From assembly GCA_038060895.1 (NCBI GenBank), contig JBBTCT010000005.1, positions 5,713 to 69,712 of the forward strand: a DNA stretch of 64,000 bases. The letters are read 5' to 3'. The stretch's first letter is position 1. Each line of letters opens with the position of its first letter. A program made the translations under genes and the position numbers. Source of the stretch: Planctomycetota bacterium (GTDB lineage: Bacteria > Planctomycetota > MHYJ01 > WSZJ01). The notes under the pieces are model-generated. The model saw only the letters and a program-made list of their open reading frames with translations. It was not told the DNA's origin and did no database searches. Positions 42,101-45,861 of this stretch are shown here, piece by piece.

Positions 42101-42783
42101 TCGACCAGCCGCGTCTTCCCTGTCCCCGCTTCCCCGACAACCTCGACGAGGCCGCCGGCCGCGGCCGCCTTCGCGAGCCGCCCGAGTTCTGTCGCGCGAC
42201 CGACGAGCGGCCTCCGCGCACCCTCCTCGCCCGCCAGCGCCGTCGCCTCCCACGCCTCCACCGGCTCGGCGCGCCCCTTCACCGCAATCGCCCCGCGCGC
42301 CGTGAACGACACGCGCCCGCGCGACAGGCGGCGTACGGAAGCGCCGGCCAGCACCGTCCCCGGCACCGCGGACGCTTCGAGCCTCTGGGCGACGTTGACG
42401 GCATCGCCCATCGCCGTCGGCCGGTCGCCGCCGACGCTTCCCCACAGGACTTCCCCCGCGTTCACGCCGACGCGCAACCGCAGCTCAAGCCCGCGCTCGC
42501 GGTTGAACTTCTTCAGCTCCTCCTGCATCCCCAGCCCCGCGCATACCGCGCGGTACGCCTCGTCCCCCCGCGCCACCGGCGCCCCGAACACCGCCATCAC
42601 CGCGTCGCCGATGAACTTGTCCACCGCGCCGCCCTGCTCTTCAATCCGGACGCGGAATACGCAAAACAGCGCGTCGACGATGTCGCGCACGTCCTCGGGG
42701 TCGAGAGTCTCGGAGAGCGAAGTGAAGCCCTTGAGGTCCGAGAAAAGGACGGTGACGAAACGGCGTTCTCCCGCGCTGCCCAT
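39172..42783 (-). CDS. Class III adenylate/guanylate cyclase - STAND ATPase - TPR protein
   Basis: [30 protein letters not shown]; Walker [15 protein letters not shown]; long TPR array. The real start is probably the ATG at 42783. Confidence 0.9.
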
Positions 42784-42796
42784 CGGCGCATTGTAG

Positions 42797-43000
42797 GGGC
42801 GACCCCGCGATGGGCACCATGGCACGCTGAAGCGCAATAACGAGGTCAGCGAAGTCGAGCGCGGCACGCCTCTCGGCTTGATCCGCATGGGTTCGCAGGT
42901 GGACGTGTGGACGGTCCCCGGCGAGTTCAAGCCGCTCCGCTCGCCGGGCGAAAGGGTGCGCGCGGGAGACATGGTCCTGGGAACGCGCAGGACGAGCTGA
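42797..43000 (+). pseudogene. C-terminal remnant of a phosphatidylserine decarboxylase (psd-like)
   Basis: The frame reads ...VERGTPLGLIRMGSQVDVWTVPGEFKPLRSPGERVRAGDMVLG..*, matching the Psd G|S self-cleavage region. It is bounded upstream by an in-frame TAG at 42794 with no start codon. Confidence 0.65.
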
Positions 43001-43007
43001 CCCCCGT

Positions 43008-44129
43008 TCACGGGCTGCGGCGTTCGAACCTCGAAGGCGCGAACGGATACGCCGTGTGCACGAAGTAGTTCTCGGGGATCGGGTTCCCTGCGATCCCGTA
43101 GACGGAGGGCCACTCGTCGCCTTTCGGAAGCAGCAGCGTGCCGAAGACCCGGTCGAGAAGCGGCAGGTGCACGGCGAAATTCCTGTCGATGGCGCGTTCT
43201 TCGGCGGCGTGGTGCCAATGGTGAAAGCGCGGCGTGGCGATGACGTGATCGAGCCAGCCGAAGCGGAAGCGGACGTTGGCGTGGATGAAGACCGCATGGA
43301 AGGAGACGAAGAACAGGTAGGCGAAGACGGGCTTTTCGCCGAAACCGAGGACGTAGAGCGGCACGAACGTGAAGGCGCGCACGAGGACGATGTCCACGAG
43401 GTGCAGGCGGGACCCTGCGATCCAATCCATGCTTTCGCAGGAATGGTGGATGGCGTGAAAGCGCCAGAGGAACGGAAGCCGATGCTCGAAGCGATGGATC
43501 CAGTACTCGCAGAAATCGGCGACGAACAGGATCTCGATGAACTGGAGCCAGCCGGGCTGGGACGCGACGGCGTGCTGGAGGCCGGCGTTGACGGCCCACG
43601 CGAAGAAGACGCGCGCCGGGGCGAGGGTGAGAAAAACGCTCACCTGCACGAGCATGTGACTCACGAAGAAGTGGGCGAGATCTGTCCGCCAGCCCTTCCG
43701 GAACACGCCCTGCTCGCGGATCCGCGCGAAGAAGCGCTCCATCGGGACGAAAATGAAGGCCAGGAAGAAGAGGTTGAGGAGAAACCAGTCGAGCCCGAAG
43801 TAGGCGGTCTGCTGCACCGGGCGTTCGGGGATGGTCGATCCGCCCATCAGGACGGCGGCCGTGGCGAGCCCGATTCCAAGGCCGCCCAGGATTTTCCGTT
43901 TGCGCAGGACGATGCTGACGAGGCCGAAAACCAGCGCCCCCACGAGAACGAAGTGCAGCAGCGCTCTCAAAAAGTGAAGCGGAACCGCGTTCCGGACCTC
44001 CGGCGTCGTCAGCGCTTCGGGAAAGAGGAAGCACAGGACGCCTCCCATTCCCATCGCTCCGAGCACCGCGGACAGGACGCCGCTGATCCAGCCGGAGCCG
44101 AGGTGTTTCGGCGCCTCGGGCGCGATCAC
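43008..44129 (-). CDS. Sterol desaturase / fatty-acid hydroxylase superfamily membrane protein
   Basis: His boxes YWIHRFEH, FHAIHH, FIHAN, HHWHH. The GTG start overlaps the upstream TGA. Confidence 0.88.
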   Translation of the reverse strand: MIAPEAPKHLGSGWISGVLSAVLGAMGMGGVLCFLFPEALTTPEVRNAVPLHFLRALLHFVLVGALVFGLVSIVLRKRKILGGLGIGLATAAVLMGGSTIPERPVQQTAYFGLDWFLLNLFFLAFIFVPMERFFARIREQGVFRKGWRTDLAHFFVSHMLVQVSVFLTLAPARVFFAWAVNAGLQHAVASQPGWLQFIEILFVADFCEYWIHRFEHRLPFLWRFHAIHHSCESMDWIAGSRLHLVDIVLVRAFTFVPLYVLGFGEKPVFAYLFFVSFHAVFIHANVRFRFGWLDHVIATPRFHHWHHAAEERAIDRNFAVHLPLLDRVFGTLLLPKGDEWPSVYGIAGNPIPENYFVHTAYPFAPSRFERRSP

Positions 44130-44836
44130 GCTGCGAAGTCCGGCGAGGCCGCGGGCGCTTCTCCCTCGGCCGACTTCGGAACGCCGGCCGCGACGAGAAC
44201 TCGCTCGGCCGCTTCCCAGAACCGGATCTTCTCCATCAGCACGTTCGCCCAGCCGTTCGTGACGCAGTAGTGGCGCGCGTACGGCGGCGCATGGTGGACG
44301 GCGTGATGCGACGGCGTGAGAACGAGGCGGCACTTCTGGAGGAAGCGCGCCAGGGCGTTCGGCGACGGCTCGTGGGCCCAGCGGTGGAACTGGTTGGTGG
44401 CGACGGTGCCGAGGCACAAACTGACGAGGGTTGCGTAGACGAAGAGCCACGCATCGGACGCCGCAGGATCGATCGCGAGGAGAGAAGCGCCCACGGGGGC
44501 GACGGCGACGCAGTTGCTCCCGTTGAGCTCGAGGAAGTGGTGGCGCGTGATGCTGAGCGGGTCGCGGTGGTGTTCGCGGAACGACCGGATCAGAAGCGGG
44601 CCGAGGACCGGCGTGTCCTCCTCGAAGAACGTATCGCAGAACCAGTGGGCGAATCCCGTTGCGAAATCCGAGAGCACGTAGCCGAGAGGCACGGCAAGTG
44701 TGATCAGCGCCGTGCGCGACGCGGATGTGAACTCGTGGCCGAGGCGCTCGATCGCAACCGCGATGAAGAACGTCCAGGCCGCGACGCCGAATGCGTCGAG
44801 GAGCCATGCGTAGCGCGGAGGCGGGGCGGCGGACAT
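44126..44836 (-). CDS. CarF/TMEM189 (PEDS1)-family lipid desaturase
   Basis: DFATGFAHWFCDT, FREHHRDP..ITRHHFLELNGSNC, NQFHRWAH, HHAVHH..PYARHYCVTNGWAN. Confidence 0.85.
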   Translation of the reverse strand: MSAAPPPRYAWLLDAFGVAAWTFFIAVAIERLGHEFTSASRTALITLAVPLGYVLSDFATGFAHWFCDTFFEEDTPVLGPLLIRSFREHHRDPLSITRHHFLELNGSNCVAVAPVGASLLAIDPAASDAWLFVYATLVSLCLGTVATNQFHRWAHEPSPNALARFLQKCRLVLTPSHHAVHHAPPYARHYCVTNGWANVLMEKIRFWEAAERVLVAAGVPKSAEGEAPAASPDFAA

Positions 44837-44892
44837 GCCGGAATTCTAAACGCGGTCTTCCGGGCGAATCGCGCTAAACCGCGCGCCGCCGG

Positions 44893-45861
44893 TCAGGGGG
44901 CTTTCGAGAGAATCAGCTTCCCGTCTTTCATGGAACACCGGATACCTGCCTGGAATGAGAGCAGGTCCAGGATTCTGTCTGCCGTCAGGTCCTTTACGGG
45001 CAGCGACACCTTTGGATTCGGGCAGTCCTTCTCTTTCACGAATTCCACGAGCAGGAACTGAGCCAGGAAGCCCGTCGCCTCCTCGACAGAAATCGCCTCG
45101 AAGTCGAGCTTCGCCCAGGCGGAGTCGGCCGGAGCCCCTTCAGCACTCATGTCGACACGCGTTGTCCCGAATTTGTAGAACGCGAACACATCCGCTTCCG
45201 GTGCGCCCGCCGGAACCCGCATCACCGGGAACGCACGGAGGGCCTTTGCTCTTTCCGGCGTCACGAGCACCACGACGCCATACCGGTAGAACAGGCTCCC
45301 TCCAGCCGCCTCTCTGATCTTTTCGAGGGCGTCTTTCGAGGTCATTTCGCCGGTCAGCGACACGGGCCGACCCCCGAGCTCCGCGGATTGGATGTCGAGC
45401 ACCACGGGCTGCTTCGTCTCCCTGCGAAGCGCGGCGAGCGCCTTCGACACGGTGGAATCGTGGAGGTCCATTCGAACCATCTCCCTTTCCACCAGCCGGC
45501 GCGAATTTGAAGATTGCGAGCTTTCTTCCCCGCCGCTCAGATCCTCGATCTTCATGTAGATCTTGCCGACGACCGCAGGTTCCTCACGGTACTCCAGGAT
45601 CGCCTGCAGTAGTTCGATGGCCTCCTCTGCCTTACCGCTCTCCGCCACTCGCACCGCCAGCTCGTACTTCGCCTCCAGGACCAGCGCCCTGTCGCGTCTG
45701 CACCGGTCATGCAACTCCTCCAGGACCTTCTGAGAACCGGCCACGTCGCCCGAATCGGACATCTTGCGTGACCGCGCCATCGCTTCGGAGAACGGCTCCT
45801 CGGTACGCACGGAGGCGCCCGTCAGAGCCACGATGACGACCGCCTCGATGAATCTCTTCAT
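44893..45861 (-). CDS. Exported protein with TPR and STN/secretin-N-like domains
   Basis: Signal-like N-terminus; two repeats of the pattern D....V..AL..L.........VSL......AL..I. Confidence 0.5.
   Translation of the reverse strand: MKRFIEAVVIVALTGASVRTEEPFSEAMARSRKMSDSGDVAGSQKVLEELHDRCRRDRALVLEAKYELAVRVAESGKAEEAIELLQAILEYREEPAVVGKIYMKIEDLSGGEESSQSSNSRRLVEREMVRMDLHDSTVSKALAALRRETKQPVVLDIQSAELGGRPVSLTGEMTSKDALEKIREAAGGSLFYRYGVVVLVTPERAKALRAFPVMRVPAGAPEADVFAFYKFGTTRVDMSAEGAPADSAWAKLDFEAISVEEATGFLAQFLLVEFVKEKDCPNPKVSLPVKDLTADRILDLLSFQAGIRCSMKDGKLILSKAP

Follow-up and report, generated by a model that had tools for sequence, protein, structure and literature searches.

A PEDS1/CarF-like desaturase gene overlapping a fatty-acid hydroxylase-superfamily gene in a groundwater planctomycete, and the recurrence of the pair in other bacteria

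The window analysed here is a 64,000-nucleotide stretch of contig JBBTCT010000005.1 from a groundwater planctomycete (genome G000; 5.4 Mb, 47 contigs, 86.5% complete), and our subject is a pair of neighbouring genes within it, a putative membrane lipid desaturase related to PEDS1/CarF and, directly downstream, a putative membrane oxygenase of the fatty-acid hydroxylase superfamily (Table 1). The start codon of the hydroxylase gene shares bases with the stop codon of the desaturase gene in a 4-base overlap, which suggests that the two are translationally coupled. The GTG start of the hydroxylase is supported because it is the sole in-frame start codon within 45 codons upstream of a conserved N-terminal G-x-G-W-x-S-G motif, and because residues G11, G13, S16 and G17, invariant across 27 aligned homologues, precede the next ATG codons. 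Both reading frames are intact, and GC content at third codon positions (GC3) is 0.86 in both genes, the same as in the neighbouring gene, so the pair looks native.

Table 1 Coordinates of the gene pair, its surroundings in the window and two loci on other contigs (ORF, open reading frame).
Feature	Position	Strand	Details
PEDS1/CarF-like membrane lipid desaturase gene (putative)	44126..44836	minus	ORF of 236 aa, ATG start, PF10520
FA_hydroxylase-superfamily membrane oxygenase gene (putative)	43008..44129	minus	ORF of 373 aa, GTG start, PF04116
GTGA stop/start overlap	44126..44129	minus	desaturase TGA 44128..44126, hydroxylase GTG 44129..44127
56-bp spacer	44837..44892	minus	stop of upstream 322-aa gene to desaturase ATG; ORF list
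322-aa gene upstream of the pair	44893-45861	minus	no Pfam match; ORF list, Pfam scan
Adenylate/guanylate cyclase-AAA_16-TPR signalling protein, 1203 aa	39172-42783	minus	~220 bp downstream of hydroxylase stop
Fatty-acyl-AMP ligase-carrier-thioester reductase, 1140 aa	L011:7661-11083 (G000 contig C34)		
Cluster presumed to be of benzoyl-CoA-reductase/2-hydroxyacyl-CoA-dehydratase (BCR/HAD) type	L162:6315-11104 (contig C22, ~68.3-73.1 kb)		MarR regulator, two HGD-D genes (449, 431 aa), two BcrAD_BadFG ATPase genes

The desaturase belongs to PF10520 (Lipid_desat), which it matches over residues 53-216 at 169.3 bits (cut-off 26.4, E 1.1e-49), and no other gene of its genome does so. The family has a four-helix topology, and two hydrophobic segments stand out clearly in a hydropathy plot of the window protein. 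Across 20 aligned homologues, H64, D68, F86, H89, H90, H99, H151, H155, H178, H181 and H182 are invariant, and over a wider set of 113 homologue rows the eight histidines common to PEDS1 and FAD4 (all of those above except H99) are kept in 112-113 rows, D68 in all 113 and F86 in 106, with histidine at the PEDS1-specific H99 position in 99. A constant offset of 32 relates H64, D68, F86, H89 and H99 to H96, D100, F118, H121 and H131 of mouse PEDS1, as these are numbered in the available part of PMC8960569. Mouse H131 equals H113 of CarF and is the histidine conserved in PEDS1 and not in FAD4; according to the accessible text of PMC9131029, homologues with this histidine from animals, Myxococcus and Leptospira complement a carF mutant, whereas the Arabidopsis and Bradyrhizobium homologues, which are without it, do not. 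The FREHH...ITRH motif is present in M. xanthus CarF and sea-urchin TMEM189 and absent in Bradyrhizobium diazoefficiens, in the sequences at hand from Dataset S1 of PMC13012113. The same portion of that dataset holds the nearest named relative of the window protein, JADLHC010000059.1_15 from a Planctomycetota metagenome-assembled genome (MAG; locus L021, 58% identical), under PTHR48177 'transmembrane protein 189' and p__Planctomycetota;c__MHYJ01. As judged by its residues, the desaturase is PEDS1-like.

Several features named in the original prediction, which was made from the letters of the window only, were borne out. It had described a 236-aa protein with all the histidine boxes of the family, and these are the invariant histidines of the PF10520 match; it had likened the segment FREHHRDPLSITRHHFLELNGSNC, which is present in the desaturase, to an animal TMEM189 motif, and that motif is matched by sea-urchin TMEM189 in the part of PMC13012113 Dataset S1 available to us; its extra histidine after ITR, said to be absent from FAD4, is H99; and its overlap of the desaturase stop with the GTG of a His-box hydroxylase is the GTGA of Table 1. 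Its probable planctomycete host also holds, as the loci of the homologue tree that are titled Planctomycetota or Planctomycetales are sequence-identical to loci of genomes in the same phylum or the same class as G000. Two side observations concern the desaturase family: the window protein has a second histidine, H100, after H99 (ITRHH, window 44537-44542), where only 2 of the 113 homologues have histidine and most have D or G, and a divergent short PF10520 branch of 171-229 aa (L126-L129 and L176, from Planctomycetota and one alphaproteobacterial genome) has N for F86 and is without H99.

The placement of the desaturase relative to CarF is less simple. Against the NCBIfam CarF equivalog NF045946 it scores 189.6 bits, below the cut-off of 500, and scores fall stepwise across groups of homologues with none reaching that value: 328-337 bits for two proteins from Myxococcaceae MAGs, 266 for Fluviispira, 222-251 for other Myxococcota, 190 for the window protein, 163 for L021, 139-153 for paired Rokubacteria/Acidobacteria proteins and 106 for a Bradyrhizobium-like alphaproteobacterial protein. 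As even the Myxococcaceae MAG proteins fall below it, the cut-off is too narrow to decide. A quick IQ-TREE phylogeny (LG+C20) of the 113 homologues, 109 of them different, joined the window desaturase to L021 with support of 99 in the Shimodaira-Hasegawa-like approximate likelihood-ratio test (SH-aLRT), inside a 29-row group (SH-aLRT 87, not strong) of Rokubacteria/Methylomirabilota, Acidobacteriota, Binatia and others; a separate 68-row group (support 83) held Myxococcota and most other Planctomycetota homologues. Forcing the window protein and L021 into an 18-row Myxococcaceae-containing clade, picked after inspection of the tree, cost 67 log-likelihood units (approximately unbiased (AU) test, p = 0.007). 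The eukaryotic PEDS1/FAD4, Leptospira and Bradyrhizobium sequences in the available portion of PMC13012113 Dataset S1 were compared by eye, those of Leptospira, animals and plants standing outside the tree. By these sequence comparisons the window desaturase is not a clear CarF equivalent, and a FAD4 type was also considered for it and is ruled against by H99.

Over residues 200-331 the hydroxylase scores 102.7 bits against PF04116 (FA_hydroxylase; cut-off 31, E 2.7e-29). Its histidine boxes are H212-x3-H216, H225-x2-H228-H229 and H303-H304-x-H306-H307, and all of these histidines are invariant in 27 sequences. About five of the roughly seven hydrophobic segments that hydropathy indicates for the whole protein fall in an N-terminal extension of ~190 residues, and the first ~115 residues are specific to its subfamily. 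The best NCBIfam match is OlsE (NF052566; 114.7 bits over residues 148-364, cut-off 475), its homologues are labelled sterol desaturase or lathosterol oxidase in their sources and never alkylglycerol monooxygenase (AGMO), and a protein atlas search returned only 'sterol desaturase family' clusters. An AlphaFold2 model (mean predicted local distance difference test score 78.4) gave no Foldseek match to the PDB at E <= 0.001, and a wide fold search with VIA-align found only generic helical bundles with Z < 8, so these searches give no fold-based clue to the substrate. Among solved structures there was no sequence relative of either protein, and a predicted complex of the two scored 0.05 against a mark of 0.32, which speaks neither for nor against binding. 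Metagenomic homologues reach 93% and 79% identity for the hydroxylase and 72% and 56% for the desaturase.

The pairing of the two genes is real and conserved. Named genomes were scanned, one per species, with two peptide patterns, and among the best 80 of the 262 loci with a desaturase relative a close homologue of the hydroxylase (41-68% identical) directly adjoins the desaturase in 13, of which eight are co-directional (L036, L038, L041, L045, L054, L087, L088 and L092) and five convergent (L022, L023, L032, L040 and L062). A further locus, L095, was left out of the paired set, having only a long-ORF cluster in common and no tblastn match to the hydroxylase. The titles of the paired records name Rokubacteria/Methylomirabilota, Acidobacteriota (Solibacteraceae), Alphaproteobacteria and Cyanobacteriota, which together with the Planctomycetota of the window makes five phylum-level labels, and when the 2848 ORFs of 81 loci were clustered all against all, the hydroxylase was the only neighbour common across phyla. 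The junction recurs as well: ten of eleven co-directional pairs, including that of the window, have a short stop/start overlap, which reads ATGA or GTGA in the window, L036, L038, L087, L092 and L125 and GTGACTGA in L041, L045, L054 and L088, and the overlap in L102 is of 14 or 20 bases. When 16 pairs are compared with one another, desaturase identity correlates with hydroxylase identity (r = 0.83), and 87% of the 120 comparisons show the hydroxylase as the better conserved protein. Paired desaturases also cluster on the tree, with 7 label changes against a shuffled mean of 15.2 and none of 500 shuffles as low, and the PEDS1 histidine is present in 14 of 16 of them (R in L102, Q in L125).

A similar picture came from a sample of 401 Planctomycetota genomes, in which the full-length hydroxylase type was taken as at least 40% identity covering the N-terminal extension. 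PF10520 occurs in 37 of the 401 genomes and the full-length hydroxylase type in 17, or 18 with a fragment at a contig end in G229. PF10520 was found in 11 of the 18 hydroxylase-bearing genomes against 26 of the 383 others, a contrast that is indicative only, the sampled genomes being related and the figures overstating the case. The two genes are adjacent in the window genome, G229, G024 and G118 and lie 7 kb apart in G384; several of the genomes with adjacent genes are nearly complete, G118 among them. Within the genus of the window, G000 and G229 carry both genes and G197 (94% complete) and G290 (85% complete) carry neither. The flanks of hydroxylase genes in desaturase-less Planctomycetota genomes had nothing in common. 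Outside the phylum, the full-length hydroxylase type is missing from all five Myxococcota CarF-clade genomes examined, whose matches are shorter FA_hydroxylases that align to residues ~117-366. A control E. coli genome gave no match to PF10520 or PF04116.

Some observations on the paired loci stand apart from these counts. Four paired loci (L041, L045, L054 and L087) have a short-chain dehydrogenase (adh_short_C2) downstream of the hydroxylase, no more than about 3 kb away; the window lacks it, and its cluster covers eight loci in all. Several record titles look at odds with their content (L040, L075, L061 and L035) and mis-binned contigs are likely: L040 bears the name of an archaeon, Nitrosocosmicus, but shows synteny with the Rokubacteria loci L023, L032 and L062, and the desaturase of L075, titled as a Klebsiella pneumoniae MAG, groups with Myxococcota. 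In the window itself, the cyclase-AAA_16-TPR gene downstream of the pair is not conserved beside it at other loci. A consensus scan of 42500-45300 found no sigma-70-like promoter, and three terminator-like sites in the same interval compare with 2.2 expected. Elsewhere the window carries chromosomal genes (SecY, Lgt, IspH/LytB, kinases and two-component systems), and it contains neither a further lipid-ether gene nor any tRNA or Rfam match.

The wider genome was searched for oxygen use and for sources of ether-lipid precursors. Three COX1 matches indicate that the host can respire oxygen. AGPS was not found in this 86.5% complete genome, where the single PF02913/PF01565 protein fits GlcD best (444 bits). 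There is no stand-alone FAR, the only strong NAD_binding_4 match being the fatty-acyl-AMP ligase-carrier-thioester reductase of contig C34; none of the three proteins that were domain-scanned among five PF01553 matches has a GNPAT-like architecture (they are a carrier-ligase-acyltransferase, an MFS-acyltransferase-ligase and a plain acyltransferase); and the YhhN lysoplasmalogenase was not found. ElbD-like domains are present in split pieces, the ligase-carrier-reductase on C34 and the carrier-ligase-acyltransferase on C21. The cluster on C22 (Table 1) was considered as a possible anaerobic route of the PlsA/PlsR kind; with its four separate subunit genes beside a MarR gene it resembles, we presume, a benzoyl-CoA-reductase/2-hydroxyacyl-CoA-dehydratase system, a family that includes PlsA/PlsR of anaerobic plasmalogen synthesis. 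The C34 ligase-carrier-reductase has an 82% identical copy in G229, with only partial matches in the pair-less genus members G197 and G290. It was also considered as a precursor enzyme that might generally accompany the pair and was rejected as such: full-length relatives occur in 5 of the 401 Planctomycetota genomes and partial or split matches in 3 more, but the pair is present in only one of these, a member of the genus of the window, so the two are not generally associated. As far as the available part of PMC13012113 goes, the genomes of L021 and of the paired Rokubacteriales MAG L092 are in its PEDS1 dataset only and absent from its GNPAT, FAR and AGPS datasets.

These results bear on the remaining claims made from the sequence alone. 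CarF/PEDS1 had been taken to be sparse in bacteria and found mainly in myxobacteria, which does not agree with 262 species genomes matching the two peptide patterns and 37 of 401 Planctomycetota genomes with PF10520. The proposal of aerobic plasmalogen synthesis or turnover is left without genome support, as the 86.5% complete genome yielded no AGPS, no stand-alone FAR, no YhhN and, among the PF01553 proteins scanned, nothing GNPAT-like, and the suggested search of the genome for ether-lipid genes returned a GlcD-like PF02913 protein in place of AGPS and only the split ElbD-like pieces on C34 and C21. The expected relationship to CarF stood in part, in that the protein belongs to PF10520 and has H99, and failed in part, in that it falls outside the myxobacterial CarF clade. 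We have not filed the desaturase as CarF because it lies on a separate tree branch, because it scores lower against the CarF model than the Myxococcota proteins do, and because no source of plasmanyl precursors was found in its genome.

PF10520 enzymes remove two hydrogens near the glycerol linkage of an intact glycerolipid, at the delta-1' position of the sn-1 alkyl chain in the case of PEDS1/CarF and at delta-3-trans of the sn-2 acyl chain in that of FAD4. The explanation we favour, with a confidence that is evenly poised, is that the pair is a co-translated two-gene operon for two oxygen-dependent di-iron membrane enzymes that would jointly edit one membrane lipid. The core activity would be that of the hydroxylase, which is better conserved than its partner and is also found without it, and the desaturase would have an accessory role on the same lipid chain, close to the head group or glycerol linkage. 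The substrate would most likely not be a plasmanyl lipid of the canonical AGPS/FAR/GNPAT route. The gene anatomy, family memberships, catalytic residues, conserved adjacency and overlap, and genome co-occurrence are as described above; from them we infer a single lipid shared by both enzymes, the order in which they might act and the probable nature of the substrate.

Several points weigh against this explanation. The association is facultative, with 67 of the 80 named loci having no hydroxylase within 5 kb, and 7 of the 18 hydroxylase-bearing Planctomycetota genomes are without PF10520, alongside a co-occurrence contrast that we read as indicative only. The genome of the closest relative, L021 (G706), has no hydroxylase match at E <= 1e-20, and among five unpaired members of the branch of the window the hydroxylase is elsewhere in two genomes and absent in three, that of L021 included. 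The genome of the window is itself only 86.5% complete. As the desaturase has all the residues known to matter for PEDS1 activity, a plasmanyl substrate is possible, and in the accessible text of PMC9131029 every H131-type homologue tested (animals, Myxococcus and Leptospira) makes plasmalogens. Finally, shared regulation might join two enzymes whose lipid substrates differ.

The best-surviving alternative, which we consider unlikely while giving it real weight, is that the desaturase is a true plasmanylethanolamine desaturase that forms vinyl-ether lipids aerobically and that the hydroxylase acts on ether lipids too, for example as an AGMO counterpart, with alkyl precursors arriving by an unrecognised route or from outside. 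H99, D68 and F86 at a spacing identical to that of PEDS1 are consistent with this, as are the classification of L021 and a NF045946 score above the 106 bits of the Bradyrhizobium-like type; the C34 ligase-carrier-reductase, which tracks the pair within the genus, could supply a fatty aldehyde or alcohol, and Leptospira, which has a complementing homologue, is also without FAR in the available part of PMC9131029. Against it stand the missing AGPS, GNPAT-like protein (three of the five PF01553 matches having been scanned) and YhhN, the AU test against the Myxococcaceae-containing clade (itself chosen after the tree), and the paired desaturases of L102 and L125 that are without the PEDS1 histidine. 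On the side of the hydroxylase, a domain order that differs from human AGMO, as the latter is described in the excerpt of PMC7911779 at hand, the lack of any AGMO label among its homologues and the absence of its full-length type from the five Myxococcota CarF-clade genomes argue in the same direction.

The independent occurrence of each gene in many genomes could alternatively mean that the enzymes work on different lipids, for instance on phospholipid acyl chains and on ornithine or hopanoid-/sterol-like lipids, and are merely expressed jointly as oxygen-dependent genes of membrane adaptation. OlsE is the best curated match of the hydroxylase, though far under the cut-off, and no other shared pathway gene accompanies the pair. 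We nevertheless think this improbable: the stop/start overlap is kept across phyla, adjacency survives inversion to the convergent arrangement, the two proteins diverge together (r = 0.83), and within the genus of the window the pair has been gained and lost as a unit. A chance adjacency, or a pair of decaying and functionless genes, can be set aside as very improbable, given intact frames, conserved catalytic residues, hydroxylase homologues elsewhere at 56-93% identity and adjacency that recurs under several phylum labels.

A bolder version of the vinyl-ether idea is that the pair constitutes an AGPS-independent, oxygen-dependent ether-type-lipid module in Planctomycetota, Methylomirabilota, Acidobacteriota and others, in which the desaturase would form the vinyl ether and the hydroxylase, as an AGMO counterpart, would attack the same 1'-carbon. 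We see only a slender chance of this; if it were true, many aerobic bacteria thought to have no plasmalogens would be making or degrading them through a route that present surveys do not cover.

PEDS1/CarF completes plasmalogen synthesis. According to the available part of a GTDB survey (PMC13012113), aerobic bacterial plasmalogen synthesis is concentrated in Myxococcota: of 73 bacterial genomes reported to have the complete pathway, 61 belong to that phylum. Elsewhere all four genes are seldom present together, and many PEDS1-type homologues are therefore encoded where the other pathway enzymes are missing. A recurrent, overlapping partner gene beside such homologues is a concrete handle on their role. 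The pair could bring to light either a membrane lipid modification new to bacteria or a vinyl-ether route outside the canonical one, and if it is neither, it is an ordinary lipid-tailoring gene pair. Planctomycetota homologues of CarF/PEDS1 are already tabulated in PMC13012113 (2026 PNAS), where the word Planctomycetota appears 68 times in the PEDS1-homologue Dataset S1 as available, and the desaturase alone is a further member of a known family. The main text of that paper, in the portion available to us, contains neither 'hydroxylase' nor 'Planctomycet', and no paper on the desaturase-hydroxylase pairing was found in the literature searched on CarF, PF10520, plasmalogens, vinyl ethers and bacterial AGMO. 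Our additions are the conserved junction overlap, the convergent arrangement, the Planctomycetota co-occurrence counts and the cross-check against the published pathway datasets.

Compared with systems already described, the hydroxylase resembles OlsE, the ornithine-lipid hydroxylase of Rhizobium tropici, in that this is its best-scoring curated bacterial model; it differs in a score far under 475 and in N-terminal ~115 residues that have no counterpart there. With AGMO it shares PF04116, first two histidine boxes of equal spacing (H, +4, +13, +16, +17) and a D-x-N-[FY] motif eight residues past the last box, motifs and spacing that are general to the superfamily. The partial text of PMC7911779 places the histidines of human AGMO at 132-225 in a longer protein of nine helices, so that its boxes lie in the N-terminal half before a C-terminal extension, whereas those of the hydroxylase lie in the C-terminal half behind an N-terminal extension. 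From legend and motifs, by which the two were compared in place of an alignment, kinship between them could not be shown to be closer than the superfamily.

The desaturase is like FAD4 and the Bradyrhizobium type in PF10520 membership and eight shared histidines. It is unlike them at the PEDS1-specific position, where plants usually have arginine (PMC9131029, available text) and the Bradyrhizobium type has tyrosine, with no F before REHH (PMC13012113 Dataset S1, available portion), and the window protein has H99 and F86. From CarF it differs in being ~37% identical to the Myxococcaceae homologues, in lying on another tree branch and below the NCBIfam cut-off, and in reading HWFCDTFFEE where CarF and TMEM189, in the sequences available to us, read HW(M/A)(G/A)DTWGS; it is also coupled to a hydroxylase whose full-length type is absent from all five Myxococcota genomes examined, and no AGPS/FAR/GNPAT or elb-like context was found with it. 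Its likeness to CarF/PEDS1 lies in PF10520, a similar size and the same nine histidines, aspartate and phenylalanine at equal spacing.

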